Counted from the stretch's first letter, positions 2 through 57,143 are shown. The stretch: DNA of 64,000 nucleotides from an uncultured Lentisphaerales bacterium (GCA_943788985.1 CALSSJ010000017.1:83795-147794), one strand, 5' to 3'. Notes: generated by a model not told the origin, from the sequence alone. A program made the numbers and translations.

Positions 2-264
2 AACTTGGTGGCGGGCGAGGTAGGCGCCCGGACTATTGTCGACATCTATCGTGACTCGTCATTGTTCCGGCTGCTGCGCATCCTACGCAGTTGATGGGTG
101 CGTGCCACTGGTGCGAGTACAACGAGCTGTGCGGCGGCTCCCGCGCCCGAGCACGGGCGCTGACCAGCGACTACATGGCCGCCGAGCCGCATTGTGTGCT
201 CGGCGAGGAAGTCATGAACCGGCACTTGCGCGACCTGGCAGAGAAGGAGAAAGCTATGAGCTGA
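2..264 (+). pseudogene. Radical SAM/SPASM-type enzyme, C-terminal fragment entering from the window edge, apparent frameshift near 79-81
   Basis: The frame of nt 2 reads NLVAGEVGARTIVDIYRDSSLFRLLR and then stops at 92-94. The frame of nt 79 continues HPTQLMGACHWCEYNELCGGSRARARALTSDYMAAEPHCVLGEEV...KAMS, with a stop at 262-264. CxxC-x5-CGGxRARA...EPxC is the Cys-rich tail typical of radical SAM/SPASM proteins. Joining the two frames needs one extra base. Confidence 0.5.
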
Positions 265-349
265 AACGAGCCCCTCGCTCCTAGTGACGGCAGTCATCCT
301 TGGCGGATCGGAGTATTGTACAACGCTGTGATCTGCCCACTCTTACGAC

Positions 350-1171
350 TTGACTGCCATGACGGAAAAAGCTGCACAGCTCGAGCAACTGCTCAAAGAC
401 TACGGGAGCATCGCAATCGCCTTCTCAGGCGGGGTAGATAGCACGTACCTGGCTGCGGTCGCACAGCGTGTATTGCCGGGGAAGGTGCTGCTACTGAACG
501 CGCGCTCACCGTCCTTCCCCGCTGAAGAGGCAGAGTTTGTTGCGGAGTTCGCAAAAACTTGGGACTTGCCACTGCGGGTGGTGGAGACGCAGGAACTGGC
601 GATCAAGCAGTATGGCGAAAACTTGCCGTCGCGCTGCTTTTTCTGCCGCACGGAGATGTACAGCCAGCTGAAGCCAATCGCCGAAGAGACGGGGATGGCG
701 GTGCTGGCTGACGGCGCGAATATGGATGACCGCAGTGATTTTCGCCCAGGCGCGAAGGCCGCAAAAAAGTGGGGAATTCGTCACCCGCTGCAAGATGTAG
801 AGCTGACCAAGGACGAGATCCGAGCGTTATCGCGGGAGTTGAACCTGCCGACTTGGGATAAGCCAGCATTTGCCTGCCTAGCATCGCGCATTCCTTATGG
901 CGAAAAAATCACAAAGTCGAAGTTGGACCGCGTCGAACGTGCGGAGATCGCACTGCGAGCACGGGGATTTCGGGTATATCGGGTACGAAGCCACGAGGAC
1001 TTGGCGCGGATCGAACTGGGCCAGGACGAGCTTGGTCGTGCCTTCGGAATGCGTGAGGAGTTGGTGACGGCGATGCGGGATGTCGGCTACGCGTATGTCA
1101 CGCTGGACCTGCAGGGCTATCGATCGGGATCGATGAACGAAGTGCTGGACCTGCCCAAAGTAGAGGTTTGA
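350..1171 (+). CDS. larE: PP-loop ATPase, LarE-like sacrificial sulfur transferase family
   Basis: 273-aa ORF with the PP-loop AFSGGVDSTYLA, CFFCR, and ACLASRIPYG motifs typical of the LarE/TIGR00268 family. The start is TTG 350 or ATG 359. Confidence 0.65.
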   Translation: MTAMTEKAAQLEQLLKDYGSIAIAFSGGVDSTYLAAVAQRVLPGKVLLLNARSPSFPAEEAEFVAEFAKTWDLPLRVVETQELAIKQYGENLPSRCFFCRTEMYSQLKPIAEETGMAVLADGANMDDRSDFRPGAKAAKKWGIRHPLQDVELTKDEIRALSRELNLPTWDKPAFACLASRIPYGEKITKSKLDRVERAEIALRARGFRVYRVRSHEDLARIELGQDELGRAFGMREELVTAMRDVGYAYVTLDLQGYRSGSMNEVLDLPKVEV

Positions 1172-1683
1172 GTGCGGGCATGATCGAGGTCACGCTCATT
1201 CTGGATCGGTTGCGGAGTGCGCACAACGTGGGCAATATTTTCCGGCTGGCCGAGCTGTGCCAAGTTCGGGAGGTCATTACCTGCGGGTATACCGCTGCTC
1301 CCCCACACCCCAAGCTTGCGAAGACCGCACGCGGCTGCGAAACACTGGTGAGTACCCGCCGTTGTGAGACCGCGGCGCAGGCTGTGAGTGAGGTGCAGGC
1401 CGCTGGTGTGACGGTTCTGGCAGTCGAGACCGGGCCTGGCTCTCAGCTGATTTGGGAAGCGCCGCTGACGGCACCTTGTGCCTTTGTCCTGGGGAACGAG
1501 GCGCTGGGGGTCAGCGCCGAAGTGCTCGCCTGTTGTGACGGTGTCGTGAGACTGCCAGTGTTCGGGTTTAAGAACTCCCTGAACGTCGGCAACTGTGCGG
1601 CGGTCATCCTTTACGAGTGCATTCGCCGGTGGTCTCCGGTAGAGCCGCCACGCAACGACCAGGATCAAGAGCGAGAAGCATGA
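1168..1683 (+). CDS. SpoU/TrmH-family RNA 2'-O-methyltransferase
   Basis: 171 aa. Contains the SpoU motifs HNVGNIFR, VLGNEALGVS and NSLNVGNCAAVILYE. It overlaps the upstream stop by 4 nt. Confidence 0.8.
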   Translation: MSAGMIEVTLILDRLRSAHNVGNIFRLAELCQVREVITCGYTAAPPHPKLAKTARGCETLVSTRRCETAAQAVSEVQAAGVTVLAVETGPGSQLIWEAPLTAPCAFVLGNEALGVSAEVLACCDGVVRLPVFGFKNSLNVGNCAAVILYECIRRWSPVEPPRNDQDQEREA

Positions 1684-2703
1684 ACGAAGAGCCAGTCGCG
1701 CAAGATAAATTGCAGCCAATCAGGCGCAAGGCCACGCTCGCTACCCTCGCCATCCTAGCAGTAATGGCGATCGCTGCAGTGCTGTCTGGGCACGACGTAT
1801 TCGACACGCTTGCGCATCTGGCACAGGTGATCTTTATCGGGGCACCGATCGTACTGGTGCTTTTCGCAGCCCGCGTCCCAAGCACAAACCGCAAACAAGA
1901 TCGGCTGGTGCTCACTGCGCTCGGAACGGCGGTAGTCTGCGGTGGCATCGGCTACTACGCGACGCAGGTCGAGCCGTTCTGGCTGGAAGTCACGCACACC
2001 ACTCTCTCCAGCTCGAAGGTATCAAAGCCGGTGCGAATCGCCATCGTGGCCGACATTCAGACGGATCACATCGGCCCGTACGAAGCGCGCGTGTTTCAGG
2101 CAGTGGTAGAAGAAAAGCCGGACCTCATTCTGTTTGCGGGCGATAATCTCCAAGCCCCGCCAGAGAAGCGCGAGCTGCTGCTTGAGACGTTGAATCAGGC
2201 ACTTCGCACGGCAAATTTCGAAACAACTCTGGGGATGGTAGCGGTCCGCGGAAATACGGACTACGCCTCCAGCTGGGAGCAGGCGTACGACGGGCTGGGC
2301 GTGCACTGCCTGACCAATCAAGACGTCCAACTTTCTGAAGAAATTGAAGTGATGGGCCTTGGGCTACGCGAGTCCATCTTTGAGCCGCCAGCCATGCCGG
2401 AGACCAAACATTTTAGGATTATGGTCGGGCATTCGCCAGACTTCGCGCTGGCCAATCCAGATGCAGATCTGATGATCGCCGGTCACACCCATGGCGGGCA
2501 GGTCCGGCTGCCTGGATTTGGTGCCATCGTCTCGTTTTGCCGGGTGCCGCGCGATTGGCTGGCGGGCCTGCACGATGTGAACGGCAAGTGGGCTCTACGT
2601 CTCACGAGGTATCGGCATGGAGCGCGGCCATGCGCCCCGATTGCGCTTTTTCTGCCGCCCGGAACTAGCGATCATTACGCTAGAGCCAGAGCAGCCGTAC
2701 TGA
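1680..2703 (+). pseudogene. Membrane-anchored metallophosphoesterase with an apparent 1-nt frameshift near 2592
   Basis: ATG 1680 overlaps the SpoU stop. Motifs IAIVADIQTDH, FAGDN, RGNTDY and GHTHGG are present. After NGKW the annotated frame becomes nonsense, but the +1 frame reads LYVSRGIGMERGHAPRLRFFCRPELAIITLEPEQPY with a stop at 2701-2703, which is the normal family C-terminus. Confidence 0.65.
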
Positions 2704-2735
2704 CATCAGATTTCCGAGACAGCCGGGGGCCCGCA

Positions 2736-4494
2736 TCATGCGACCCGCGATTCCATGCTCTGGTGGCGCAGAAGTTCGGCGTACTCGCCACCGTCCCGGA
2801 TGGCCAACTCATCATGCGTGCCCTTCTCCACGATGCGACCATCGCGAAAAACCAGAATGATATCTGCATCACGGATGGTGCTGAGTCGGTGGGCAATGAC
2901 GACGGTGGTCACTTGGCCCGTGAGTACCTCGATAGCCCCTTGGACAAGGCGCTCTGAAACAGAGTCCAAGGCGCTGGTGGCCTCGTCCAACACGAGAATG
3001 GATGGTTCTCGCAAAATGGCGCGCGCCAGAGCAATGCGCTGGCGCTGACCGCCGGAAAGCAGGACACCGCCTTCGCCGCACTGAGAGTCATAGCCGTCCT
3101 TTAGCTCCAGGATGAAATCGTGGGCATGGGCACGGCGCGCCGCTTCAACCACCTTGGCCTGTGGGACATCGCCATAGGCATGCACAATATTCTCTAGGAT
3201 CGTCCCACTGAACAGGATTGGGTCTTGATTCACTACCGCAATCTGGCGCCGCACACTCCTCATGTTCAATTCGTTCACGGGGAAGCCATCGATCGAGATG
3301 ACGCCGTCATTTGTCCGGTAGAGACCGAGCATCAGATTCACGAACGTGCTCTTGCCAGCGCCCGACTGCCCAACCAAGGCAACCGTGGTGCCAGCGGGGA
3401 TCTTCAGGTCAAGGTCCATCACCGCGCACTTGCCTTCGTCATAAGCAAACGAGACATGATCAAAGCCGATCTCTCCGCGAACCGTGTCAAGGCAGCGCTT
3501 GCCTTGATTGTATTCTACGTCCGGAGACTCAAGCACTTCGCGGATGGAGCTGGTGGCTTCGGCGAACGCCGTGAGCGTGGGAAAGACGTTTACGATCTGG
3601 ACGAAGTTGTTTCGAATCATGCCGACGTAAGTCACGAACAACATCATCTCGCCGATGGTCAGCGCGCCATCAATCACTTTTGCGGCGGCAAAGCCGAGGA
3701 CAAGAATGTGAAAGCCGATATTGGTGGATTTCACCAGTGCGCTGAACAGCCCTACCTGGGCCTCGGCTTCGGTGGATTTCTCGACAACTTCAGCGCTGAT
3801 GTTGTCGACCCTTCCGACGCTCGAAGCCTTCGTGGCCGTGGAGGCGGGCTAGTAGCGATGTCTGCAAGAAGGTGGATACCGAGGAACTGAGGTCTTCTCG
3901 AGCCAGACGCTCGAAGTGGCGGCTCCGTCGCACGCTGCCCTTGAAGATCTTAACGAAGAACAACAAGACCGGGAAAATAACAAGAAACATCAACAGGACA
4001 CGAGCATTCACGAAGCAAAGCACGCCGACTAGGACACCAAGCATGACGATGGCATTGAAGACGTTGTTCACGAAAACGTTCGCGAACTGCTCCGTGCGGT
4101 CGACATCCACCATGATTTTGGAGTAGTAGCGCCCGCTGTCTTTGGAGTAGAAATAGGTCAGAGACAGCGTTTGTAGACGGCTTACAATCTTATTTCTCAG
4201 GTCACGCGAGACCTCTTTAATCACCCGCACAAAGATCGCTCGTTGCGCAGTGGCAAAGAGCACATTCAAGGCTAAAAGGACCGCCATAATGCCAATCACG
4301 GCCAAAATCCCCCGCTTGTCTTGGGCCGGGATGTAGTGGTCGACCACCACCTTCACCAAAACGGGCATGGCCAGCTGCGGCAACATCGTGTAGATCTGAA
4401 ACGCCAGCGACCAGACAGTGGGCCTGACGTGCCCGCCAAAAAAGCTGCAATAGAAGCATACCGCTTCGCCAAAGCTGGCTTTTTCCTTTGCCAC
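2736..4494 (-). pseudogene. ABC exporter (fused TMD-NBD, MsbA/bacteriocin-exporter type) split by a frameshift near 3805-3815
   Basis: The TMD ORF spans 3790-4494. The NBD ORF spans 2736-3734 and carries Walker A GQSGAGKST, the signature LSGGQRQR and Walker B ILVLDEATSALD. The NBD frame stays open upstream as ...VDNISAEVVEKSTEAEAQVGLFSAL and overlaps the end of the TMD frame (...HGHEGFERRKG). One extra base in the AAGGG context explains the split. Confidence 0.7.
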
Positions 4495-4497
4495 CGG

Positions 4498-5694: not shown

Positions 5695-5985
5695 AAGAAC
5701 GGCAAAACCGGTGCAACTGCACGGGGCAGTTTTGCCAAAGGACCTTCTACAAATACGTTGTTGGCGGCGACTGGGCAGATTTGCAAGGGATCCCGAGAGT
5801 CCGTGAATCTGCCGCCAGAAACGGGCGATAGCTCTGTTTATTATCACCTCAGCAGGATGAATGCAAGCGGTGGGCGCTAAAACCGATGCATTAGAAGATC
5901 GCTTCCGCTGACAAAAGACCGACGATAGGTTTCCTAGCCTGTGGCTTGGTCGAGACAAGATCGAAAAAAAATAAAAAATGTGTGA

Positions 5986-6513
5986 CACACTGCGGTTGAG
6001 GGCAGCTTTTATCCGGGCTCTCCGGACGAGCTGCGATCAGCGGTCAATACGATCCTGCAGATCGACGGCCCCACCCTGGTGGCGTTTCCTCACGAGAACG
6101 CCCTGAATGGCCAGGATTGCTACAAGACCATATCCACGGATTATGGTGAATACTGGAGTGATCCTATCCGCTTCCCCATACCGGTCTGTCACCGGCCTGT
6201 CGCGGAACTCCTGCAGGATGGCCGTATCCTGATCACCTATCGGTACCTGCAGGGCGACGGAGGAACCGAATAGCTGGGGATCCGGGCGCAAAACTTTATG
6301 GCGGCCCTGACCAATGATGCCTCAGCGTTGGCCTATGACCGGAAGATGGCCGCCACCCGCATCCTAGCGATTGACTACGACCGTTCTCCGGTCGCCGATC
6401 TCGGATATTCCGGCTGGGTTCAGTTCGATGACGGCGAAATCTACATCGTCTACGATGCTCCCAAGGGGCAGATCCGAGGGTGTTCTCTACAGCCCACCGA
6501 GTTCGTCCTATAA
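5986..6513 (+). pseudogene. Remnant (C-terminal ~170 codons) of a BNR/sialidase-like glycoside hydrolase with an in-frame TAG
   Basis: A single frame reads ...ILQIDGPTLVAFPHENALNGQDCYKTISTDYGEYWSDPIRFP...YLQGDGGTE-TAG(6271-6273)-LGIRAQNFMAALTND...GYSGWVQFDDGEIYIVY. There is no start codon, and a stop lies at 5983-5985. SxDxGxxW is the Asp-box/BNR signature. Confidence 0.5.
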
Positions 6514-8983: not shown

Positions 8984-9968
8984 CACGATCGCAGGCTAGG
9001 TCCTCGAGTTCGTCAACGGGCACCCAGCGATGCGGCTTAGCGACGGCTGCGAACTCCGCAAAACCTTGAAGAACGGAAAGTGTCAGCCGAAAGTGGGTGT
9101 AGACATGGACGACTGCCTGAAGCTCTTCGCTGCGTTGCAGGGCGATTCCAAGGGCGGCAAGCGCCTCGCTCAAGCTGGTTTGATCTGCTGCGGTAGGCAG
9201 CTCCCAGAGTCCGCCCAGAAAACCATCGGTGGGCCGCTGGTGCATCAATACGCCTTGGTCTGTCGCTAGACACACCGCAACCTTCTCGCGCTCCGGAGAC
9301 GGTGGCCGCTTTGGCAGATTCGGCAATTGCTCGACGGTGCCTTCTTCGAAAGCAACACACCAGGTCCGACAGGGGCAGGACAGGCACGCGGGCGAGCGCG
9401 GGGTACAGACGAGCGCCCCGATCTCCATGATCGCCTGATTAAAGGCGTTGGCGCAGTTTTCTTGGATGGCTGGCAAGAGTTGCTGACGCAGTGCGCGTTT
9501 TGCCTTCGGCCGAGTGAGGTCTTCGGCGAGTCCTAAGAGCCGTGAGCTGACGCGAATGACGTTTCCGTCGATGACTGGTTCAGGCTCGCCAAAACAGATG
9601 CTGGCGATGGCCGCAGATGTGTAATCGCCGATTCCTTTGAGTTTACGGAGTTCGCAAGCGCTCCGAGGGAACTCGCCCAAGTCGCTGACTTGGCGGGCGG
9701 CGGCGTGGAGATTACGCGCGCGAGAGTAGTAGCCCAGCCCTTCCCAGGCCTTGAGCACATCATCGAGCGGTGCCTCAGCCAGGGCCTGCAGCGTTGGGAA
9801 GCGGGCCATGAAGCGCTCGTAGTAGGGAATAGCGGCCACGACGCGGGTCTGCTGCAGCATGATCTCGCTCACCCATACTCGGTAGGGATCGCGCGTCTGC
9901 CGCCATGGCAAGTCTCTGCCTTCGCGCCGATACCAATCCACCAGGGCGGCTGCCCATTCTGTTGCCAT
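8925..9968 (-). CDS. mutY: A/G-specific adenine DNA glycosylase
   Basis: Contains WYRREGRDLPWRQTRDPYRVWVSEIMLQQTRV, the HhH-GPD region, an Fe-S Cys cluster (CTPRSPACLSCPCRTWC) and a C-terminal NUDIX-like domain. The likely start is ATG 9968. Confidence 0.9.
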   Translation of the reverse strand: MATEWAAALVDWYRREGRDLPWRQTRDPYRVWVSEIMLQQTRVVAAIPYYERFMARFPTLQALAEAPLDDVLKAWEGLGYYSRARNLHAAARQVSDLGEFPRSACELRKLKGIGDYTSAAIASICFGEPEPVIDGNVIRVSSRLLGLAEDLTRPKAKRALRQQLLPAIQENCANAFNQAIMEIGALVCTPRSPACLSCPCRTWCVAFEEGTVEQLPNLPKRPPSPEREKVAVCLATDQGVLMHQRPTDGFLGGLWELPTAADQTSLSEALAALGIALQRSEELQAVVHVYTHFRLTLSVLQGFAEFAAVAKPHRWVPVDELEDLACDRATRKALAVALGAPAQRTTR

Positions 9969-14471: not shown

Positions 14472-15085
14472 ATGAATTAGCACTCTTTTCACGCCTTGGC
14501 GTTTGCCCTGATTTTGAGTCTTTCGGTGCACGCTGAATACACAGCCCGACCAGAAACCGAGCGAGAACTTCTAGACCTGTGCCTGGAAGAGCTCATGGAT
14601 CTCAAGGTGACCACCGTCTCAAAGCGGTCCACACCGTTTTCGGATAGACCCGCGGCGGGTTTCGTTTTGACTCGTGCAGAGTTGATTCGCTTTAGCGTCT
14701 CGCAGATAACAGATGCGCTGCGATTGGTTCCGAGCGTGCAGGTCGCGCGACTAGATTCGAAGAAGTGGGCGATCATGGCACGCGGGGGCGGAACTCTGCT
14801 CGCGAATAAGATGCTGGTGATGATCGATGGGCGAAGTGTCTGCAATAAGATTTTCTCAGGCGTGCTGTGGCATAACCCCGATCTGCAGTTCGAGGACATT
14901 GAACGCATTGAGGTGGTTCGCGGCCCGGTAAGCTCATCCTGTAGGCCAACGCTGTGAACGGAATTATCAACATCATTAACCGTCCAGCTCAGAGGCGCTT
15001 GGCGGGGGCATCGAGCTCGCTGTGGGGAACGGGGCGGCGAACGGCCATCCGCGGCGTTGCATGCCGCGCACATGCCAAAATCTAA
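14472..15085 (+). pseudogene. TonB-dependent receptor remnant: signal peptide plus plug domain only
   Basis: ATG 14472 is followed by TAG at codon 3 (14478-14480). The frame then reads HSFHALAFALILSLSVHA / ...LKVTTVSKRS...SVSQITDALRLVPSVQV...MIDGRSV...IERIEVVRGP. A frameshift follows near 14930. The next frame gives ANAVNGIINIINRPAQ..., which terminates at 15083-15085. No beta-barrel follows. Confidence 0.65.
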
Positions 15086-15097: not shown

Positions 15098-15595
15098 GTG
15101 GGCCCGACGTACAGGTTCTCGTCTGATTTTAAGTATTTTCTCACAGTCACCGTTTTCTGTGCGGCCGTCTCCACGTTCGCGCAGGAGCCAGCGCCCGCAG
15201 GCCAGAGTCGTCTGCAGGCGATGATCGTGTATAACATCGCACGATCTGTAACCTGGCTGGCGGCAGACTCTCTGCCGAGGAATCGGTTTCGCATAACCGT
15301 GGTAGGTGGGACTGCCCATACCAGCGGGCTCTCGGCCCTGGCTTCGCGGAAAGTGATGGGCCTGCCAATCGAGGTTGTGGATGCCAAGGTCAATGCTCAG
15401 TCACCCGCGGACATGATCTACGTGGCCTCCGCTGCCCCGGTCTTGCAGCATAGCGTAGTCGGCAAGATCAGCGATCGACAAGTTTCCGCAGCGTTCCTAT
15501 GTAAAGCCCTCCGTACGCGACCGAGGGACCGGGATTACGCGGACATCTCCGAGAGCATCTTCGAGCCGTTCTTCAAGACCAAGCCCTTAGGCTAG
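15098..15595 (+). CDS. YfiR/DUF4154-like periplasmic protein whose 3' end runs directly into a histidine-kinase ATPase remnant
   Basis: Has a signal peptide (...VFCAAVSTFAQEP). The YfiR-like core reads LQAMIVYNIARSVTWL...RFRITVVGG...VMGLPIEVV...MIYVAS. The ORF then ends ...DISESIFEPFFKTKPLG-TAG, which is the G1/G2 region of an HATPase domain. Confidence 0.45.
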   Translation: MGPTYRFSSDFKYFLTVTVFCAAVSTFAQEPAPAGQSRLQAMIVYNIARSVTWLAADSLPRNRFRITVVGGTAHTSGLSALASRKVMGLPIEVVDAKVNAQSPADMIYVASAAPVLQHSVVGKISDRQVSAAFLCKALRTRPRDRDYADISESIFEPFFKTKPLG

Positions 15596-16140
15596 GGCAC
15601 CGGTCGCGGGCTATCCGCTGTCTTTGGCATCGTCCCCCAAACCGGCGAGATTCTTGATGTGGAAACCCACGTGGGCCCGGGGACGTCCATTCACATCTAC
15701 CTACCGGAATCTCGCAGCAGCAAAACCGATACGATCCAAACCAGCATCGAGGAAATGCCACAGCGCGGCGATGAAAAGGTCTTAATCGTCGAGGATGAAA
15801 GCAAAGTGCGCAAGATGGCCATGGACGTACTTTCCGGTTACGGCTACACCGTGCTCTCGGCAGGTTCAGGAGAGGAGGCACTCAATACTGCTCGCGGAAA
15901 AGGGGGGCGTAGATCTACCGCTAATGGATCGAGTGATGCCGGGCATCAACGGGCACGCGCTGAGCATCCGGGTTTGGGCAGTGTTTCTCAAATTTAAAGT
16001 TCTGTACATGTCCGGCTAGGGCGGGGACACCTTGATTAGCTAGGGACCTAGAGGGGCGAGATGCTCAACAAGCCATTCGCGCCCAAAATACTGTTACGCA
16101 AAGTCCGAGAGATCCTGGAAAAGCCAGCCCGCACCATTAC
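15530..16140 (+). pseudogene. Decayed C-terminus of a hybrid sensor kinase (HATPase end plus receiver domain)
   Basis: Reads IFEPFFKTKPLG-TAG(15593-15595)-GTGRGLSAVFGIV...VGPGTSIHIYLP, then VLIVEDESKVRKMAMDVLSGYGYTVLSAGSGEEAL. After that come at least two frame changes (..MPGINGHAL.. / ..KVLYMSG-stop / ..LNKPFAPKILLRKVREILEKP). The HisKA and sensor parts are absent. Confidence 0.6.
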
Positions 16141-26522: not shown

Positions 26523-27183
26523 GGGTTTGCGACCGTCTTCTCTCCCCCAAATGAGAAATAACCCTCCGGTGACCGGCGAAGTCCGGTCCACTGGATTGTT
26601 ATGAATCAACCGCAGACAAGGAGAATTTGCCGTGATTAGGGCAGGGGACCGCGTGCCAACCAACGGAAATTGGACCGTTGCGCTGGATGAGGGAGAGGGC
26701 CGTGTGTTCTGGTGCGGGTATCCGTTTGGCGGATGCAGGCGCGCTGTGAGGGTTGCACGGTGGCAAAGGCTGCGAGTGACAGCGAACTGATAGGCATGCT
26801 GCAGGAGGTTTCCAAATCGCAGAACCCGCCAATGGCTGCTGCTGCTCGAAGGCTGCTTGTCAACGACGGATGAATTCCTTATTTCTCATTCGCCATGGCC
26901 GAAATTAGATCCGTGCTGCGGTCAGGCCGCCCAGGGTGCAAAACCGTAGTTCGAACTTCATCTGGCGTGCGTGGTCGTGGCGACCAAAGATGCAGCACAC
27001 AGGAAACTGAGGTGGCCATGAATTACCGCCCCTCGGGTAGCTCGTTATCAATGTCCATCAGTGGTTCTGATTCTTCTCCGTTTTAGCCAATGATCCGACC
27101 ACAAGTTACGAGCCGTTTCGTGGGCGGGTTGTTGGCTTCGTCGGATGGTTTGACCACTGATCGACATTGCTGGACACTGATTT

Positions 27184-33357: not shown

Positions 33358-33441
33358 CAGTTGCGCCAAGCCAGCTCCGTGGTGGCTTTACAGCGTACAT
33401 CGCAAGGCGGCACCGCGCACAATGGCAGGACTCGGCGACGC

Positions 33442-33554: not shown

Positions 33555-33857
33555 TCACCAAGTCTTACTCTCACGCGGCGATCCCGAATAGCTGCCCGAA
33601 AGCGCCCCAGGCCGATGGTCCCGCGCAGCAGCCAATGCGGCATCGATCATCGGGACATCAGGCTCGTGGGCAACTGCGAACTCCGCAACTTCGCAGCCCC
33701 CCTCGACCAGGGCTTGGCGCTGCGCGGCGTTGCGAGCTTCGCAACTGCCGCGCACGAGCAGGAGGCGCTGGCCGTAGGCCCGCACCCAACTCGGGAGTTC
33801 GGCGACGCTGCCCCAGCCAAATCGGAGTTGCTGTGCTGCGGCAGACTGAAAGTCCAT
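33555..33857 (-). pseudogene. N-terminal ~90-codon remnant of an iron-containing alcohol dehydrogenase
   Basis: MDFQSAAAQQLRFGWGSVAELPSWVRAYGQRLLLVRGSCEARNAAQRQALVEGGCEVAEFAVAHEPDVPMIDAALAAARDHRP matches the Fe-ADH N-terminal Rossmann-like half. The GGGS motif and the metal-binding half are missing, and the ORF tail is nonsense. Confidence 0.55.
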
Positions 33858-33867
33858 ATGAATCGAA

Positions 33868-34863
33868 TCAGCCGGCTCGCGGATGGGCAATCTCATACAC
33901 CCGGCGTAGCCGCTCCGGTGTGATGTGCGTGTAGATCTGGGTCGTGGAAAGACTGCTGTGGCCCAGCATTTCCTGGACACTGCGCAGGTCTGCACCGGCG
34001 TCTAGCAGGTGCGACGCGAACGAGTGACGCAAGGCATGGGGTGTGTAGTCGACCGGCAATCCTGACTCACTCAAATAGACCTTGAACTGCCGTTGGACCG
34101 AGCGCACGGTCAACGGCCCACCGCGCTGATTGCGGAACAGAATCCCCCGCTCTCGCCGTCCTGCGAACCCCAACCGCGCCCGCTCTGCCAGATACTCCCG
34201 CAGCGCCGACAGCGCCGGTTTCCCCAAGACGCACAGACGCTCCTTCTTGCCTTTTCCGCGCAATCGGGCAACACCGCTAATTAGGTCTACGTCGTCCAGT
34301 TCCAGCTGGATCGCCTCACTGATACGCATGCCACCGCTGTAGATCACTTCCAGGATCGCGCAATCGCGCGCCGCCGCGAACGTCGGTTCCCCACGCAGTG
34401 CGCAGTCACTCGAATATGCGCGTCGCCAATAACGGCTCGGCGCATCCAGCAATGACCGCACCTCATCAACCGACAGCACGTGGGGCAGATTTCGCTTCTG
34501 CTTGGGCCGACGCAACCCGGTAAAGGGATTCACCAGCAGGTTTCCTTCCCGCACCAGAAAATAACAGAAGCTTCGCAACGCCGAGAGCTTACGCAGGGTA
34601 GAAGTACGTGCTAGGTTCCATTCTGAGAGGCGCACCAGGTAGCGGCGAGCCGCGCGCGCGTTGATTGCCTCATCAGTTGTGGGCTGTTTCAGGTCAGCGC
34701 CCAGCACATTGTCAACGAATTGAACCAAATCGCGCCGATAGGCATCCAGCGTATGCTCGGAGGCATTTCGCTCGCGCTCCAAATACCGGAGAAAGCGATG
34801 AATCATGTCGCCAATTGACCCGCTCGGCAATGCTAAGTCTTCGGGTATCTCAGCGCCGCTCAT
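33868..34863 (-). CDS. Tyrosine site-specific recombinase, XerC/XerD type
   Basis: N-terminal SAM-like domain (FLRYLERERNASEHTLDAYRRDL). The catalytic region contains GMRISEA, HALRHSFASHLL and LGHSSLSTTQIYTHI. The likely start is ATG 34863. Confidence 0.8.
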   Translation of the reverse strand: MSGAEIPEDLALPSGSIGDMIHRFLRYLERERNASEHTLDAYRRDLVQFVDNVLGADLKQPTTDEAINARAARRYLVRLSEWNLARTSTLRKLSALRSFCYFLVREGNLLVNPFTGLRRPKQKRNLPHVLSVDEVRSLLDAPSRYWRRAYSSDCALRGEPTFAAARDCAILEVIYSGGMRISEAIQLELDDVDLISGVARLRGKGKKERLCVLGKPALSALREYLAERARLGFAGRRERGILFRNQRGGPLTVRSVQRQFKVYLSESGLPVDYTPHALRHSFASHLLDAGADLRSVQEMLGHSSLSTTQIYTHITPERLRRVYEIAHPRAG

Positions 34864-34999
34864 TTCTTTTTCCGGCGCTTTTTTTCTGCTCCCGACTCCA
34901 GCGTCACTGTATTGTGCTCCGAGTTGACTTGACGATCGAAAACCGCGACGGTCATCCCATCTGCCCCGAGAGTCCCCGTAGGCGGGCAAAGACATTTTG

Positions 35000-35620
35000 C
35001 TATAGCTCCACCCACCTGCAGGAGCGGTGGGCATCTTCTTTCTTGCCCTTTTTTTCTTTCTCTCTGGCCTTACCAAAGGGTGCCACGCCTCTACCAATTG
35101 ACGGTCTTGGGCAGGGCCCAATTCTTCCCCTTGTCCGCAGCTTACGCACACGATCCGGTGTATTGGCCGCCTTCAGCAGAGCTGTAAAATTCACTTGCCG
35201 CTTTTCCTTCTCAGCCTCAATGATCGCCACCAGCGCCTGCCACTTCGAGGGATTTAACCGGCGCACAATCGTGGAGAACGACAGACCGACCAACCCCTTC
35301 CGCGCGCTGCCAGCCTGCATGAGATTCCCTGCCACCTTGGACAAATACTCCGCAGAGGCATTGCCACCATCTTCCATCGACTGATCTGGCGGCGGAATTT
35401 TCGCTTCGTCGCCGATCCACTCGTTAAGCTGTTTTCCATTCGCGCTGGTGGGCGCCAGCGTCAAAATCATGCGCACCAGATTTCGCCCTAGATAGTCGCT
35501 ATGGTCCTCGGCCAAGCGCTGCTGGGCAAGCCTTCCAGCTCCCGCCATGCAGGTATGGAAAGCACCGTCACACACAGACGACACCATGACCGCTAACATC
35601 GACAGCATTCGGCGTTTCAT
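35000..35620 (-). CDS. Hypothetical secreted protein with a Lys/Arg-rich tail
   Basis: ATG 35620 lies 2 nt after the upstream stop. Has a signal peptide (MKRRMLSMLAVMVSSV). No family recognised. Confidence 0.45.
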   Translation of the reverse strand: MKRRMLSMLAVMVSSVCDGAFHTCMAGAGRLAQQRLAEDHSDYLGRNLVRMILTLAPTSANGKQLNEWIGDEAKIPPPDQSMEDGGNASAEYLSKVAGNLMQAGSARKGLVGLSFSTIVRRLNPSKWQALVAIIEAEKEKRQVNFTALLKAANTPDRVRKLRTRGRIGPCPRPSIGRGVAPFGKAREKEKKGKKEDAHRSCRWVEL

Positions 35621-40964: not shown

Positions 40965-42239
40965 TTGTTCGCCCGACTGACGCTGCTCACAGCGCTTGCA
41001 CTACTCTTCGCAGGCTGCCGGACGATCTACGACCCATTTGATGCCGGCAAGAAATCCCAGGAGCGCGGCGACCATCGCGAGGCAGTAGACGCCTACTCCG
41101 AAGCCCTGGCCAACACCCCCGAGTGGACCGAAGCGCAGAACCGCCTGCGCAAGTCTGCCAACGAAGCCATCTCCCAGCGCTACGAAACTGCCAAGCGTCT
41201 AAAAGATCCGCTGGCCGCCGCTGAGACTTGCCTCGAGATTGACCGCGTGATCGCCCGTGGCCGCGAGGCCAACGTCGGCTTGGAAATCCCAGACGATTAC
41301 CCACGGTTTCGCCGCGATCTGCTCGACACCGCCATCGAAACCAAGCGTACTCGGGCACGAGAGCTCGCCGCGCGCGGCAAGTGGCGCGTCGCCCAACGCC
41401 TCATCAGGCAGGCAGGTGAAGATTTCCACGCCACCACTCAACAGCACCGACTTCTCCGCGAAGACGCTGTCCAAATCCAGCTCGATCGCGCCCGCAAAGC
41501 ACTCGCCAAGAACCGCTACTGCGACGCCCAAGAAATCTTACGAGACGCCCGCAAACTTGCGGCAGAAAGCCACGTCAGCGAAGACTTGCGCGCTCTCGAG
41601 CAGCGCGTTGCGGACTTCGCAGCCAAGCGCGTCGTTGTCTTCCCGCTTTGGGCCCCGCCTGAAGCCGGTGAACTGCCGCCCGGCTTCCTCGATGACTTGA
41701 ACCACTCGCTGCATGCTGCGCTACAAGACACCCCGGCCTTTCTCCAGGTTGCCCCACAGACAGAGATCACGAGCTGGCTGCGCACCAACAACCTCTCGCG
41801 CCGCTCCCGCAGCGTTGCGAGCTCCGCGAACGCGGGCGAGGACCTGAAGGCCGATCTCGTCGTAAACGCCTGGCTCGAGCGCATGAGCAGTGACGAATCC
41901 TCGCTCACAGGCCGCCCAATCCAGGCCCGCACACGCGAGGGAGAGGCCACTGAATACACCCTGCTTTCCGGCCCCTGCCGGATCCACTGCCAAGTTCGCT
42001 TCGTGGTGATCGACACCGCGACCCGCAAAGCCGTGCTGGACAAGACTCTCAATACCGTAGCCAAGGGCCGCATTGAGCGTGCCACATTTGCGGGCAACAT
42101 CCGCACCCTTAATCTCAACCCGGCCGAACGTCGACTCTTTCACCTCGGCGGGAACCGCAGCACCGAGGATGATCTCATGCGCAAGGCTGCCCAACAACTC
42201 GTCGACGCTACATCGAGGCTTGCCGGCTGCGACCGATGA
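40965..42239 (+). CDS. Hypothetical lipoprotein
   Basis: TTG start with the lipobox LLFAGC. 424 aa, with a helical N-terminal half. No family recognised. Confidence 0.5.
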   Translation: MFARLTLLTALALLFAGCRTIYDPFDAGKKSQERGDHREAVDAYSEALANTPEWTEAQNRLRKSANEAISQRYETAKRLKDPLAAAETCLEIDRVIARGREANVGLEIPDDYPRFRRDLLDTAIETKRTRARELAARGKWRVAQRLIRQAGEDFHATTQQHRLLREDAVQIQLDRARKALAKNRYCDAQEILRDARKLAAESHVSEDLRALEQRVADFAAKRVVVFPLWAPPEAGELPPGFLDDLNHSLHAALQDTPAFLQVAPQTEITSWLRTNNLSRRSRSVASSANAGEDLKADLVVNAWLERMSSDESSLTGRPIQARTREGEATEYTLLSGPCRIHCQVRFVVIDTATRKAVLDKTLNTVAKGRIERATFAGNIRTLNLNPAERRLFHLGGNRSTEDDLMRKAAQQLVDATSRLAGCDR

Positions 42240-42604
42240 CCCCGTTGGTCACGGTCGTCATGCCCTGCCGCAACGAACAAGACCACATCGCCGACTGTCT
42301 GCGCTCATTACTTGACAGCGACTACCCGCCAGACCGCCTCGAGTTCATGATTTTTGATGGCCAGAGCAAAGACCGCACCCCCGAGATTCTTGCGGAGTGC
42401 GCAAAAGAAGATCCTCGCATGAAAGTCATCGCGAACTCCGCAAAAATCAGGCCCGTCGGGCTTGATCTTGGCTTAGCCGAAGCCACCGGCGAGATCATTA
42501 CCCGAGCCGATGCCCATACCTGCGCGTCCTTACCGAGCTGCTGCGCGCCGAAGACGCAGACATTATCGGGTGCGAACTCGCAGCCAGGAAAGGTCACCGC
42601 GTGA
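42236..42604 (+). pseudogene. GT2 glycosyltransferase remnant (N-terminal ~100 codons, frameshift near 42525, rest deleted)
   Basis: VTVVMPCRNEQDHIADCLRSLL...MIFDGQSKDRT...ITRADAH is the GT2 N-terminus. After AH another frame continues with YLRVLTELLRAEDADIIGCELAA. The similarity then ends about 160 nt before convergent serB. A full GT2 would need roughly 200 more codons. Confidence 0.6.
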
Positions 42605-43990: not shown

Positions 43991-43999
43991 TTACGCTGC

Positions 44000-44440: not shown

Positions 44441-45151
44441 CTAAATCATTGATTCGCGCTCAAAGCGTCGTATCGCCCAAAACTGCGGCGGTGTGTCCGC
44501 GGCGGCCACCTCAGCCGCAACATTGGCAGGGGTTGGGATCTCTTTTGGACTGACACCCTGATCCAGCATTTGACGCAAGATCGCAATCTGCATCGCACGC
44601 GGCCTTTCTTCGATCCCTATTTCAGGGCCGCTGGCAGGCATCTTTTCATCAGCACTCACGGCATAGTCTCCAATCTCATCAGCTCCGCTGTGCAGTTCTT
44701 TCCGCACGAAGGTTTCCTGTTGGTCATTCGCCCGATGCGGCGCGTAATGACGAATCAGTAGAACGATATGCTTCCCGGCAACGCACTCCAAGATCAGACG
44801 CAACCTCGCGCTATTTCGACGCAGCCACGATACCACATCACCGGCAGCTGCAGCACGCATCAGACTCAAGCCGGCAAATGCTGCATCGTCTTGCCGTAAG
44901 TCTCGCTCGTCTGTGGTGGCGAGTGCTACAAGGGTGTAGCGAAGTTGCGGCAGGTTAAACTGCACCTGAGGTTGAACCTCTCCTGCAACGTAGCTCAGAT
45001 TGAACAGATCGCGCACGTCGGGCGCCTGCTCCTTGAGCTTATGGCCGATAAACACACCGGATTGCAACTCAATCGCCACATCATCCCAGTCCACCGCCCC
45101 TCGTAGGCTATCCGGCACAACTTCTCTCAGGAATCCTCGCGCGGCAGCCAA
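44441..45151 (-). CDS. Rpn/YhgA-like (PD-(D/E)XK, transposase_31 family) protein, probably degenerate
   Basis: ARGFLREVVPDSLRGAVDWDDVAIELQSGVFIGHKLKEQAPDVRDLFNLSY aligns by eye with Rpn N-regions (ARDFL..LP..L...DL..L.L...SFID..L....D). The leading HDxxFK segment is absent, and the ExQ position reads VQFNLPQ. Confidence 0.4.
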   Translation of the reverse strand: MAAARGFLREVVPDSLRGAVDWDDVAIELQSGVFIGHKLKEQAPDVRDLFNLSYVAGEVQPQVQFNLPQLRYTLVALATTDERDLRQDDAAFAGLSLMRAAAAGDVVSWLRRNSARLRLILECVAGKHIVLLIRHYAPHRANDQQETFVRKELHSGADEIGDYAVSADEKMPASGPEIGIEERPRAMQIAILRQMLDQGVSPKEIPTPANVAAEVAAADTPPQFWAIRRFERESMI

Positions 45152-45367
45152 CCCCGAACAGTCGGTAAACTATCTAAATCGTCATCGTCCGTGTACTATC
45201 TTCCTCCCGGTAAATTACTGTTAATCTCCTAGGCTTTCTGTCACGCAGCCGATTTCAATTCAGGAACCTGCGAAGGTCCCTTGCTCGATGCAGTCGTGCA
45301 GGGGTGCAAGATTCGCGCTTGGCAGCATACAGTACCGCCCTGTTCCTACCGTGAATTCGAGATTTCC

Positions 45368-47819: not shown

Positions 47820-48735
47820 CAATCAGTCCTGCGACTGCTGGAACCGATACCGCCACGATCACATCTACGGACGCCGGGGGACTCGACCTCACTGGTACAA
47901 AGCCGATCAACGTCACCTACCGCATGACCACAGATTGTATCGTACCCCACCGGCTCGCTTCCGAATGTGCTTACCGTGAGCTACGACGAGAATCCGGGCG
48001 CTGATCTGGGCCTCGGCAACGGTTCTACGATCGATTTCGAAGCAATCCGGGGAACTGGCTTTACGAACCCGACGCTCACAGGTGGGACGTTGACGCCTAC
48101 TTTGGTCGGTGATAGCTACCGGACTACGGTGGGCGAAGTAGCAGCTCTGACCGTCGGGACGTTTCAATCTCCCTCAACGCGACCGAATTCGACGATCTGC
48201 TGATCTAGGTCAACGGTCTCGATCCCTGCGCCCCCGGTACGACGTTGTCGGACGACGCGTCGCCGTACGTACTCATCGAGCAACCAAACATCGAGATTAG
48301 CGCGGTAGGCGCGAGTATACTTTTCTGCGGCGACGGCAAGATGCCGGTGACGGTGTTCAACAACAACGCCTCGAGCGACCCCGGCCCGGCTTCCACCTTC
48401 TCCAAGGATACGCTCATCTCAGGCAACGCCGTCACCGTCAAAAACGTGACTGCTGGCTACTGCACCGACCGACCTCAATGGTGACTACGAATTCACCAAT
48501 CTCACGGACGCCAACTACGTCTTCGGAGAGACCGATTCCCCTGGCGCCATCTCAACCTCGGACGCCGACACACCACCGTTCTACGATAGCTATGTTGGCG
48601 TCGCTTTTGCCAGCATCGACTTCACCGGCAATGACTGTCTAGACACCCAGGAAATCTTCTCGACCGTAATAACGACAGGATCCCAATTTTTCCCCGCTTA
48701 CTCCTCCGGACACAAAATGCCGGTGGCGCCATAGT
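47820..48735 (+). pseudogene. Multi-frameshifted remnant of the C-terminus of a large surface/adhesin-type protein
   Basis: Fragments lie in three frames. Examples are ..TAGTDTATITSTDAGGLDLTGTKPINVTY.., ..VSYDENPGADLGLGNGSTIDFEAIRGTGFTNPTLTGGTLTPT.., ..VFNNNASSDPGPASTF.. and ..DLNGDYEFTNLTDANYVFGETDSPGAISTSDAD... The last is SdrD-B/Cna-B-like. There is no N-terminus. Confidence 0.5.
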
Positions 48736-49709: not shown

Positions 49710-49733
49710 GCTGTCGGGCATCACAGCCCGACA
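49710..49733 (+). terminator. Hairpin 15 nt after the ndk stop (no U-tract)
   Basis: CTGTCGGGC-atcaca-GCCCGACAG, a 9-bp perfect stem. Confidence 0.4.
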
Positions 49734-49961
49734 GCCTGCGGCTGGCCATTCAAAATCCACAAAAGGATCGACTAGAGTCGACTCACATCGACAGCTGTCG
49801 ACTAGAGACGATCTGTTGGTGCTACCGGTCTTAACTTGGAAATTGGATATTCCTTGTTGGCTGTTGGATATCGATCAAGTTGTCGCAGCGGGTTGCTACT
49901 GGCGACGAAGGCGCGATTGTATCAGGTTCAACAATACGCTCCCTTCGATCGAGAGATAACC

Positions 49962-51827: not shown

Positions 51828-51835
51828 CAGCCCCT

Positions 51836-51867
51836 GGATAGCGCTCGGTCTGGATCCGAGCCTATCC
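51836..51867 (+). terminator. Hairpin 8 nt after the ilvD stop (no U-tract)
   Basis: GGATAGcGCTCGG-tctggat-CCGAGCCTATCC, 12 bp with one bulge. Confidence 0.45.
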
Positions 51868-51956
51868 ACCGACTGCTAAGCGACCAACTCCCCTCACACA
51901 CACTTTTAAGGACGGGCCTTCCCGCATCACACGATGTGGCTGGAGCGCCTTTGACT

Positions 51957-53756: not shown

Positions 53757-53779
53757 AAAGCTGGCAGCAGCATCTGGAA

Positions 53780-54592
53780 GTGGCCCTGGGTACGACAATT
53801 CGTACCTGGCGGCCACTGCACGGCGGTTGCATCGCCCAAGCCTTCCTTGCGGAGTCCGCAACAGATCAATTCTTCGTCAAGCATTGCCCAGCTGGCGCGC
53901 CCGAGATGTTTGCCGCGGAGGCCGCCGGCCTGCGAACGCTTGCGAACTCCGCAACCCTTCGCATCCCGGCCGTCCTCGCCGTCAGCGAAGCATTTCTCGT
54001 CCTCGAGTATGTCGAGCCGGGCACACCTGGCCCAGCCTTCATGCCCGATTTCGGTGCCCAGTTCGCCGCCCTGCACCGCGCCTCCGCAGCCAAATTCGGC
54101 TTCACCGGCGACACTTTTCTTGGCACCACGCGCCAGCACAATGCGGAGTCCGCAAGCTGGCCGGAATTCTTCTACGAGCATCGCCTTGTCGCCCAGCTCC
54201 AGCTAGCCGAGCAAAACCACCTGGCCACGCCCGAGCTTCGCCACGCAATCCGCAGTCTCGAAGCGCGCATCGCCCAGCTTCTCGCCACCGACGAGCCTCC
54301 CGCCCTGTTGCACGGCGATCTTTGGTCGGGGAATTTTCTCGTCGCTCATGATGGCGCCCCCTGCATCTTTGATCCCGCCGTTTACTATGGAAGTCGCGAA
54401 GCCGACCTAGCGATGACCTATCTCTTCGGCGGCTTCGACTCAGCGTTCTACGACGCCTACCAAGAAGCGTGGCCGCTCCCCGACGGCCACGCCCGTCGTC
54501 GCCGCCTCTACGAAGCCTACCACATGCTGAACCACCTCAACCTCTTTGGCTCCAGCTACTACAGCGCGGCCCTCAGCCGCCTGACTGCCTAA
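53780..54592 (+). CDS. Fructosamine/ketosamine-3-kinase family protein (start uncertain)
   Basis: Contains HGGCIAQAF, FFVKH, LVLEYV, LLHGDLWSGNF and READLAM. The frame stays open upstream to at least 53738, and no ATG/GTG/TTG occurs in it before 53780. Confidence 0.8.
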   Translation: MALGTTIRTWRPLHGGCIAQAFLAESATDQFFVKHCPAGAPEMFAAEAAGLRTLANSATLRIPAVLAVSEAFLVLEYVEPGTPGPAFMPDFGAQFAALHRASAAKFGFTGDTFLGTTRQHNAESASWPEFFYEHRLVAQLQLAEQNHLATPELRHAIRSLEARIAQLLATDEPPALLHGDLWSGNFLVAHDGAPCIFDPAVYYGSREADLAMTYLFGGFDSAFYDAYQEAWPLPDGHARRRRLYEAYHMLNHLNLFGSSYYSAALSRLTA

Positions 54593-54831
54593 CAACTCGA
54601 AGGTTCGTAGTGAGCCTCCTAGCGAAGCGGAGTGGCGTTCTTTCGTGCGACATGTCTGGAAATCTTAGGACTTGGTGACTCCATGACTCGATGATACCCG
54701 ACTACGTCGTAACTACGCTGAAGTGGTGATAAACTGGCTGACGAGCGGCCCCACAGGATGAGCTTGGTGTCCGATCCCGAAATGTACCTGCATATTCGGG
54801 TACAACTTAACGGGCCATAGTATCGCGCTAA

Positions 54832-54848
54832 ACTAGACTTAGTCTAGT
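54832..54848. promoter_or_regulatory. Candidate operator palindrome upstream of the antitoxin gene
   Basis: ACTAGAC-tta-GTCTAGT, with 7-bp arms, lies 24 nt upstream of ATG 54872. Type II TA operons are usually autoregulated at such palindromes. Confidence 0.45.
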
Positions 54849-54871
54849 CAGGTCAAGCGGAGCAAGAAAAC

Positions 54872-55096
54872 ATGCAAGTCAATATGCTGGAAGCAAAGAC
54901 AAATCTATCCAAGCTCGCGGCATTCGTTGCTGATGGCGGTGAGAAAGTGGTTATCGCCAAGGCCGGAACGCCTTTAGTGGACTTAGTTCCCCATCAAGAG
55001 GCCAAGGCTCGCACTCCAGCCGGCTACGATGTGATTATGGACGAGTTCGATCAAGCAGACGATGTGATCGCGGCATTATTTGAAGGGCGGGAATGA
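54872..55096 (+). CDS. Phd/YefM-type antitoxin
   Basis: MQVNMLEAKTNLSKLAAFVADGGEKVVIAKAGTPLVDLVP. 74 aa, overlapping the toxin start by 4 nt. Confidence 0.75.
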   Translation: MQVNMLEAKTNLSKLAAFVADGGEKVVIAKAGTPLVDLVPHQEAKARTPAGYDVIMDEFDQADDVIAALFEGRE

Positions 55097-55482
55097 GACG
55101 GATCCTGCTCGATACGCACGCCCTCCTCTGGTTTATCGCCAGATCTGGCAGCTCCCTTGGACCTGAAGCGCTCGCCTTGATTATCGAACCGCGCAATCAT
55201 GTCTACGTGAGTGTAGCCAGCACGTGGGAGATCTCTATCAAGCGAGCCTTGGGGAAACTCCAAGCGCCAGCGGATATGGACGCGATTGTAGAGGACAAGT
55301 CCCTTTCAAAGCTACCCTTCACCCTATTCCATGGCGATCTCGCCGGCGCACTTCCTGCGCTGCACAATGATCCTTTCGATCGCATGCTGATCGCCCAGGC
55401 CCAAGTCGAAGGTTTGGAACTAATGACCAGCGATCATAAAATGCGGCAGTACAAAGTTCGGTGTATCAACGCAGCCCAGTAG
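55093..55482 (+). CDS. vapC: PIN-domain VapC-family toxin
   Basis: Contains ILLDTHALLW (first acidic residue), STWEISIK and DPFDRMLIAQA...LMTSD. Confidence 0.8.
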   Translation: MRRILLDTHALLWFIARSGSSLGPEALALIIEPRNHVYVSVASTWEISIKRALGKLQAPADMDAIVEDKSLSKLPFTLFHGDLAGALPALHNDPFDRMLIAQAQVEGLELMTSDHKMRQYKVRCINAAQ

Positions 55483-55951
55483 CAGAATCGCGCCTTGTGC
55501 GCAATCACTACTCCCCCGTTACGGCCACGCTGACACGGTGACGGCACCAGCTTCAATAGCAACGTCTTGGAGATGGGCGCTTTCGATTCGTGTGGAAGAC
55601 ATATAGTTGGGCATTATCTCCGCGAGAACGCATGTATCGGTCACGGGCCTGTGTTTTCGGCCTTGCAGTCTAGAACGAGCTTGCAGCGATGAATGAACAC
55701 CTCGGGTAGAGTGCGAACATCGGGCTAATCGTCGGCTGAATCGTCTCGTATTTCTTCCCTTCCTTCTTTCCTTCCTGTTCAGCACCATCAGACGTGGCTC
55801 AGCGACCTGGCACTGTCTGGAGAATCAAGGTCAGTCGCGTCCATGGCCGCTACGCTCCCCGCAGCCTCCGCCCACGCAAGGCCCAGCACTTGATTGTAGC
55901 CTTTTTGATGTTTGGGTTGAAAAATTTCGAAAGACAGGGAACTGTGCAGTC

Positions 55952-56734
55952 ATGGAATTCAGACCTTGCATAGATCTTAAAGACGGCCGCGTGGTCCAGA
56001 TTGTAGGTGGCTCCCTCTCAGACAGCGATCGCTCCGCCGTGCAAACCAACTTCACGACCGACCGTTCGCCTGCGGAGTTCGCAAACCTGTACCGTGAGGA
56101 TGGCCTGACCGGCGGGCATGTGATCGCGCTAGGGCCGGGCAACCAGGACGCTGCACTCGCGGCATTCGCCGCCTATCCCGGCGGGTTGCAGATGGGCGGC
56201 GGCGTAAACCTGGACAATGCGACCAGCTATCTGGACGCTGGTGCCAGCCACGTCATCGTCACGTCATTCGTCTTCCGGAACGGCAAGATCGACCAATCAC
56301 GGTTAGACGCCCTCATTGGCCGCATTGGCAGCAAGCGGCTGGTCTTGGATCTCAGCTGCCGCCAACGAGACGGCCGCTACTGGATTGTCACCGATCGCTG
56401 GCAGACCTTTACCGATGTCTGCGTCAGCCCCGAGACCTTGGCCCAACTTGGCGGCCAGTGCGATGAGTTTCTGGTCCACGGCGTCGATGTCGAAGGCCAC
56501 CAGGCTGGCATCGAGGAAGAGCTCGTCGCCCTTCTCGGCGAGCATTCTCCGATTCCTTCCACCTACGCGGGCGGCGCCCGCCATTTCGCCGACCTGGAAC
56601 GGGTCAAGGAACTTGGTCGCGGCCGTGTCCACCTCACGATCGGCAGCGCCCTCGATATCTTTGGCGGTGCCCTCCCCTACCGGGACGTCGTCGCCTGGCA
56701 TCAGGCCCAGGGCAATGACACATCCTACCGGTAG
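55952..56734 (+). CDS. hisA: ProFAR isomerase of the eukaryote-like (His6) type
   Basis: [18 protein letters not shown]...TNF...GGHVI.LG...[12 protein letters not shown]...GASHVIVTS...RLVLDLSCR...IVTDRWQ...[17 protein letters not shown]...TYAGG...[11 protein letters not shown] closely follows the yeast HIS6 / plant HISN3 pattern. Confidence 0.75.
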
Positions 56735-56795
56735 AAATCAATCCAGGCGATTCGCATCGTCTCGGGGTTTGCCGCTAGAATCTCGGCGGACAGAC

Positions 56796-57143
56796 TCAGT
56801 TCAAACCAACCTCCGGCTTCCCAACTACCCGCAGGCGAGCATCATCAAGCGCCACGGGCTTGCCATTGGCCTTCAGCTCGATCCGCGGCCCCAGATCTCC
56901 ATGGCTGGCTACACTTACAGCCAGCGTGTGACAAGCGGTCTTGTGCTTGCGCGATTTCAAGCCCTTCAGGTACAGGCGAACCACCAGGCGCTCAGGCAAG
57001 GCATCGCCACGTTGCACCGTGGCCGGCCCAATCCCGACCTGACTGCCGTAAGATCTGTCTCGCGATCGCAGCTCACCTCGATCGCCCTCGCCTGCAACGC
57101 TGCGAGCAGCACACAGCCTAGCAGTCCAAATCGCCGGTAGCTC
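56796..57143 (-). pseudogene. Small secreted protein, apparently frameshifted near 57020-57040
   Basis: ATG 57143 opens a frame that gives a signal peptide (MSYRRFGLLGCVLLAALQARA). That frame stops after 58 codons. A second frame carries on as ..GPATVQRGDALPERLVVRLYLKG...KANGKPVALDDARLRVVGKPEVGLN to 56796. Confidence 0.35.

Follow-up and report, generated by a model that had tools for sequence, protein, structure and literature searches.

The draft genome of an uncultured bacterium of the order Lentisphaerales (GCA_943788985.1) contains a 64-kb stretch, C17:83795-147794, in which broken genes lie scattered among intact ones. This whole stretch is the window referred to below, and positions are window positions unless a contig name precedes them. 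Its core housekeeping genes are intact, as a first-pass annotation had reported, and include recQ, mutY, dnaJ, grpE, dapF, infC-rpmI-rplT, and serB; metG, ndk, ilvD, typA, panB, a DAHP synthase gene, and a hisA-like gene are intact as well. Intact genes occupy 79% of the window, gene remnants (fossils) 6.4%, and other non-coding DNA 13%, and the presence of about 8 fossils beside about 52 intact genes is locally high. The genome as a whole consists of 4.58 Mb in 48 contigs (N50 152 kb, no Ns), with a G+C content of about 58%, a CheckM completeness of 83.6%, and a contamination of 1.5%. Because its TypA protein shares 64% identity with that of a Pontiellaceae metagenome-assembled genome (MAG) and 63% with that of a Victivallaceae MAG, the organism is a PVC (Planctomycetes-Verrucomicrobia-Chlamydiae) bacterium close to the Kiritimatiellia. 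Sulfatase paralogues are numerous in its genome.

The broken genes of the window fall into two groups when independent assemblies of the same population are compared. The nearest comparison genomes belong to the same order only and match at 64-78% DNA identity over short stretches, which makes them useless at the level of single bases. Exact-protein look-ups with LarE, TypA, DnaJ, and L20 instead yielded 40 loci, drawn from about 30 independent assemblies of marine metagenomes and including short-read MEGAHIT/SPAdes-style contigs, Joint Genome Institute (JGI) and Logan assemblies, and a UBA MAG; the whole analysis used 48 loci. Identity to the window is 99.7-99.97%, and only 11.2-14.3 kb of the window is left uncovered by the 40 loci. 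Their source records are marine metagenomes, and the population is nearly clonal (about 99.9% identity) over many of them. Every indel between the window and the comparison loci was listed and each lesion sorted as private to this assembly or shared, resulting in a clean split; domains were checked by three-frame Pfam scans of the window with stops read as X. The first-pass annotation had counted at least eleven disrupted loci, and the frame scans find all eleven lesions where it had placed them, yet the count is inflated by assembly errors. The window very probably mixes two unrelated things, consensus errors and genuine gene fossils (Table 1).

Table 1. Broken genes and gene remnants in the 64-kb window
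Feature	Position	Strand	State
TIGR04053-family radical SAM/SPASM pseudogene, 3' end	1..284	+	frameshift near 80-90
YaeI-like metallophosphoesterase gene	1680..2703	+	private extra G at 2590 (GG to GGG)
ABC exporter gene (membrane domain and ATPase)	2736..4494	-	private extra C at 3809 (CC to CCC)
Sialidase-like (BNR_2) fossil	5986..6513	+	C-terminal 45% left; in-frame TGA
TonB-dependent receptor fossil	14472..15085	+	signal peptide and plug left; Plug 6-97/107
YfiR/DUF4154-like stump	15098..15480	+	DUF4154 2-92/143
Hybrid sensor kinase fossil	15530..16140	+	HATPase_c 53-110/111; Response_reg 1-39/111
Iron-containing alcohol dehydrogenase (Fe-ADH) fossil	33555..33896	-	N-terminal ~100 residues only; Pfam Fe-ADH 2-82/168
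252-aa gene, function unassigned	34860..35618	-	private extra G at 34981 and at 35114
Family-2 glycosyltransferase (GT2) fossil	42236..42604	+	Glycos_transf_2 1-90/168
Rpn/YhgA-like (Transposase_31) degenerate gene	44441..45298	-	Transposase_31 15-61/203; open reading frame of 225-236 aa left
Probable repeat adhesin fossil (SdrD/CNA-B-like motif)	47820..48735	+	scattered over three frames
Two overlapping orphan open reading frames	56796..57145	-	59 aa (signal-peptide-like start) and 73 aa; from open reading frame listing, gene status unverified

Three genes in the window are broken by single-base insertions that are private to this assembly. The extra G in the YaeI-like metallophosphoesterase gene is absent in 10 of 10 independent loci, all encoding an intact phosphoesterase of 340 amino acids (aa) whose product spans positions 4-270 of the 271-position YaeI profile. 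In the ABC exporter gene, the Pfam matches to ABC_membrane (13-185/274) and ABC_tran fall in different frames in the window, and the responsible extra C is likewise absent in 10 of 10 loci, which encode an intact 585-aa exporter. Both breaks had been reported near 2592 and 3810 with the caution that they could be assembly indels, a caution that was justified. The 252-aa gene was overlooked at first; its two extra Gs are absent in 13 of 13 loci (about 9 separate assemblies), and an intact gene is called there. These two insertions lie 133 nucleotides (nt) apart, upstream of xerC, which thereby gains a false N-terminal extension.

The same contig has further private insertions upstream of the window (C17:68865, 69425, 70343, 71816, 82638, and 82980), splitting a kinase/WD40 gene, an SDR gene, and a leuA-like gene, all of which are intact in comparison locus L089. 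The private insertion rate is about 11 in 75 kb of contig, or one per 6.5 kb, and far denser in some patches. Within these approximately 75 kb, every private change is an insertion and, with a single exception, adds a G or C beside an identical base. Other 'contig_N' assemblies, which appear to be Flye-type long-read assemblies, have private insertions of their own elsewhere, splitting dnaJ, xerC, a HAD gene, and a TPR gene.

The damage extends to tuf and rpsA. EF-Tu is readable in this genome only through about 17 frame changes, and rpsA contains 16 private insertion events. Dozens of private indels and substitutions fall in tuf (C30:90324-91423) and rpsA (92502-92904; locus L130), and the 12.4-kb locus that holds both is 97.9% identical to 7-8 other assemblies, with 64-71 gap positions that lie mostly in these two genes. 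An intact 398-aa EF-Tu is encoded in 7 independent assemblies, and the neighboring rpoB and rpoC are clean in this genome. The region appears to be a patch of very poor consensus. A second, dead copy of tuf was considered as the source of the shredded sequence and rejected, since the gene at this locus is intact in independent assemblies. Neither EF-Tu nor ribosomal protein S1 is dispensable to a cell. Because no cell would survive with tuf in this state, we infer that the private insertions are sequencing or consensus errors and not mutations of one strain.

The genome itself has the properties of a long-read metagenome assembly, that is, a contiguous, error-prone draft. Its false breaks resemble the spurious pseudogenes of long-read or low-coverage assemblies, in which private single-base insertions split intact genes, essential ones included, and completeness is lowered. 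Split genes and lowered completeness through indels have been described for long-read MAGs (PMC11017572, PMC8103633, PMC12007338), and frameshift correction raised the completeness of similar nanopore MAGs from about 85% to 94-95% (PMC8103633). The low completeness of the present genome, 83.6% at an N50 of 152 kb, fits with such errors. Unlike the usual nanopore errors, which are homopolymer deletions, the changes here are mostly insertions beside an identical G or C and are extremely clustered in tuf and rpsA. This clustering may reflect reads of other taxa recruited during consensus building. Sulfatase paralogues on three further contigs (C8:36904-38227, C32:113904-115191, and C38:54853-55270) align to an intact sulfatase as 2-3 separate pieces; they are probably frameshifted in this assembly, and many of these breaks may be errors.

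Shared lesions begin at the left edge of the window with the radical SAM pseudogene, which starts upstream at about C17:82931. Positions 1-297 are the same in 10 of 10 assemblies, bar 2 single-nucleotide polymorphisms (SNPs), so the break that had been noticed near 80 is real; further breaks upstream of the window had been missed. The TIGR04053 profile is complete but split, with positions 1-66 and 63-323 in two frames of the short-read locus L093 and the remainder (325-363/366) in frame 1 of the window, and the Pfam Radical_SAM domain is similarly split into 2-58 and 52-164. The gene carries two genuine frameshifts, to which this assembly adds private ones.

Part of this pseudogene is being lost in the population. 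Besides the 5' half of this pseudogene, a 5.46-kb segment (C17:78077-83535), whose right end lies 259 nt before window position 1, holds a DNA methylase, an HNH protein, and a gene of 210 aa. This genome, L090, L093, and L096 have the segment, and it is missing in 6 of 10 assemblies (L089, L091, L092, L094, L097, and L098). The polymorphism is a deletion rather than an insertion, because the lost piece holds the exact missing part of the radical SAM gene. An 89-aa open reading frame (ORF) with a match to PALP (pyridoxal-phosphate enzyme) abuts the deletion junction (L089:8926-9195; C17 about 77.6-77.9 kb) and looks like another gene remnant.

The truncated remnants are alike in 7-17 independent assemblies, short-read ones included, in agreement with the initial view that truncations and in-frame stops are not assembly errors. 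They are genuine, fixed pseudogenes of accessory functions: glycan degradation, transport/signaling, envelope, adhesion, and a mobile-element nuclease. That they miss large parts also stands, as evidenced by much longer homologues and by partial domain profiles in the sialidase-like, Fe-ADH, GT2, Plug, HATPase_c, and Rpn-like pieces. The sialidase-like fossil corresponds to residues 190-346 of P0002, a 346-aa protein, with 81.5% identity, and its 605 homologues are mostly about 346 aa long with BNR_2. P0002 sits in a sulfatase and glycoside-hydrolase cluster of which the window retains nothing, and the window flanks show no trace of the neighbors of the intact sialidase homologue (L129). Searches of PDB sequences with the sialidase-like and Rpn-like pieces returned nothing.

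Three adjacent stumps illustrate the extent of deletion, as about 4.7 kb of TonB receptor, YfiR-like, and hybrid kinase sequence is compressed into 1.7 kb. The TonB receptor fossil, common to 7-8 assemblies, is interrupted by a stop at codon 3 and by a frameshift that follows the plug; its barrel is deleted, and the Pfam frame scan detects no barrel domain beside Plug. A deletion has joined the DUF4154 stump, which the first-pass annotation did not list, to the kinase stump, and DUF4154 shares a frame with the HATPase_c tail. What is left of the kinase is the last half of the ATPase domain, with an in-frame stop, and a receiver domain with at least 2 frameshifts. Kinase paralogues in the genome have intact open frames of 402-710 aa, with one further match in a 137-aa frame.

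The Fe-ADH fossil is common to 17 assemblies and, when aligned to the 393-aa chain 7w9x_A, covers its residues 16-98. Just 198 nt separate it from a convergent FGGY kinase gene, and an indel beside it at 33441, consisting of the 8-nt GATGACTT repeat unit, is polymorphic. The GT2 fossil, identical in 9 assemblies, has a frameshift near 42525 and a deleted 3' part. A paralogue search within the genome, informative for GT2 and the kinase tail only, found GT2 paralogues with open frames of 297-491 aa, and in a family search the best 20 of 26 GT2 matches are free of stops, with open frames of 234-445 aa.

The Rpn-like gene has stops within its first 40 codons and has lost about 77 internal residues, corresponding to the nuclease core. 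A word-indexed homologue search with its ORF returned the ORF alone, and an exhaustive HMMER search found 2 remote homologues (347 and 433 aa) that are bona fide members of Transposase_31. The 347-aa homologue, P0124, matches Transposase_31 with an E value of 5.7e-26. Residues 52-95 of the Rpn-like product pair with 40-83 of P0124, and its residues 97-254 pair with 161-311, leaving residues 84-160, the nuclease core, missing. The adhesin fragment contains no ORF, and most assemblies call no gene there. It has a polymorphic C3/C4 indel at 47945 and 7 SNP sites in 0.9 kb, the densest of the fossils, and is probably a genuine fossil.

Polymorphism within the population provides a separate view of these remnants. 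Among 33 distinct assemblies, the number of SNP sites per kb is 2.15 in intact genes, 5.84 in fossils, and 3.53 in other non-coding DNA, and the excess of fossils over intact genes corresponds to an odds ratio of 2.7 (p = 8e-5). The fossils thus appear to evolve without purifying selection. The polymorphic indels at 33441 and 47945, in or beside fossils, fit with an absence of constraint. The ratio of nonsynonymous to synonymous SNPs is 47:49, which is compatible with a young clone and proves nothing about niche.

Near 57030, a small secreted protein with a frame break had been proposed; the region is as described, and it contains two overlapping orphan ORFs that are not verifiable as a gene. 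Neither ORF has a Pfam match or a homologue, a word-indexed search with the 73-aa ORF returned itself alone, and the region reads the same in all assemblies, with no indel separating them. Scans for Rfam families and tRNAs across the window were empty. Three gaps of 660-820 bp (26523-27183, 56735-57411, and 59199-60016) contain no detected gene, Rfam family, or tRNA; they have no Pfam match, and six-frame translations of the large gaps, not themselves scanned with Pfam, are noise-like. These gaps may be older, unrecognizable fossils or regulatory DNA. At 54872-55482, an intact pair of a PhdYeFM-type antitoxin (74 aa) and a PIN-domain toxin (129 aa) is flanked by a fructosamine-kinase-like gene and the hisA-like gene. 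One assembly, L097, departs from the window sequence at 9818-9906, near the 5' end of mutY, where 17 clustered substitutions and 3 small indels fall in 90 nt; this is either a recombination patch or a local assembly chimera.

In the most probable reading, errors and fossils are mixed in the window, and the breaks in the YaeI-like phosphoesterase, ABC exporter, and 252-aa genes are false ones due to consensus errors. The approximately 8 fossils arose through frameshifts and nonsense mutations but chiefly through deletions, which took away most of each gene; they are fixed in the population, unconstrained, and still being trimmed by deletion. All of them are accessory genes on the ordinary mutation-then-deletion route of bacterial gene loss. 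Several points weigh against this reading. The private insertions could formally be real mutations of the sampled strain, and they fall in runs of only 1-3 bases rather than in long homopolymers. The matches of the adhesin fragment are weak (SdrD_B, E value 0.0067; UafA B-repeat, E value 0.13), and the ORFs near 57030 are unverified as one gene. The fossil density, moreover, has no matched baseline from related genomes.

The most probable of the alternatives explains the density of fossils by reductive evolution of the whole genome following a recent restriction of niche or host, a reading close to the first-pass proposal of ongoing accessory-gene loss under relaxed selection or niche restriction. 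The local number of fossils per intact gene, their share of the window, the polymorphic deletion, the very low population diversity over many samples, and the nonsynonymous to synonymous SNP ratio all speak for it. We nevertheless regard it as doubtful. Coding sequence is estimated to make up 82-86% of the genome by a rough codon-bias deconvolution calibrated on the window, compared with 79% in the window itself, which lies at the 25th percentile of 64-kb windows and hence in the lower quartile. Recently host-restricted bacteria have coding densities of 50-75%. Loss of DNA repair or biosynthesis genes is not seen in the window, where RecQ, MutY, DapF, IlvD, SerB, PanB, DAHP synthase, and the HisA-like protein are encoded intact. 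The best 20 GT2 matches noted above are open, and 4.6 Mb at 58% G+C gives no sign of AT drift. By this rough estimate, the genome does not look massively decaying. The part of the earlier proposal that survives is the loss of accessory genes, with a polymorphic deletion and faster-evolving fossils; relaxation or restriction at the scale of the genome is not shown.

Genomes that decay after recent host restriction provide a comparison. As in Mycobacterium leprae, Sodalis glossinidius, and Shigella, many fossils derive from transport, envelope, and catabolic genes, and the population is clonal. Unlike in those bacteria, coding density is estimated at 82-86% and not 50-75%, repair and biosynthesis are intact, the source is marine metagenomes rather than a host, and expansion of insertion sequences is not demonstrated here.

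A reading in which all the lesions are real, the strain being either a mutator or a clone in decay with recent losses of the phosphoesterase, the ABC exporter, and many more genes, is very improbable. The insertions do stand in the deposited sequence, and the organism does carry many genuine fossils. However, the assembly would then also be without functional EF-Tu and S1, and probably without LeuA; the uniform character of the private changes, all insertions and nearly all G or C beside an identical base, and the occurrence of like changes at other sites in other 'contig_N' assemblies also argue against it.

The remaining explanation, that the remnants are functional short proteins from short families or domesticated fragments, is the most improbable: gene callers do predict products there (GT2, 122 aa; Fe-ADH, 113 aa; plug, 143 aa; DUF4154, 165 aa; Rpn-like, 217-225 aa), the pieces are conserved over all assemblies, and the Rpn-like ORF has 1 SNP in 654 bp, but each piece is part of a domain profile without catalytic regions, several contain in-frame stops or frameshifts, homologues are full length (346, 393, and 347 aa), paralogue open frames reach about 300-490 aa, the SNP density of fossils is 2.7 times that of genes, and conservation over assemblies reflects a near-clonal population and not selection.

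A combination of consensus errors with gene fossils consists of a known artifact plus ordinary bacterial pseudogenes. Bacterial pseudogenes are reportedly removed by deletion bias, a view credited to Mira, Ochman and Moran in 2001 and to Kuo and Ochman in 2010. The fossils here behave like such pseudogenes: accessory genes are inactivated by frameshift or nonsense mutation and then shortened, the remnants are neutral, and a partial deletion is polymorphic. Pseudogenes are usually quoted as 1-5% of bacterial genes. The local density of about 8 fossils in 64 kb lies above this usual share, a comparison confined to the window.

The main lesson is one of method, in that a high count of broken genes in this genome is not readable as biology without a second assembly or the reads. 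Approximately 1 gene in 8 may carry a false frameshift, as extrapolated from about 75 kb of this contig, and other frameshift-based findings from this genome need the same caution. For the organism, the fixed accessory fossils and the segregating deletion provide a clean, small example of gene loss by mutation followed by deletion. The fossil cluster becomes interesting only if a proper count shows a genome-wide extent. It is unlikely, on present evidence, that a Kiritimatiellia-like lineage has been caught in early genome decay, with fossils of glycan degradation, TonB uptake, signaling, adhesion, and envelope functions fixed and deletions still segregating. If true, such early decay would be a sign of a recent bottleneck or of a narrowed niche in this group, which is otherwise known for very large polysaccharide-degradation repertoires.

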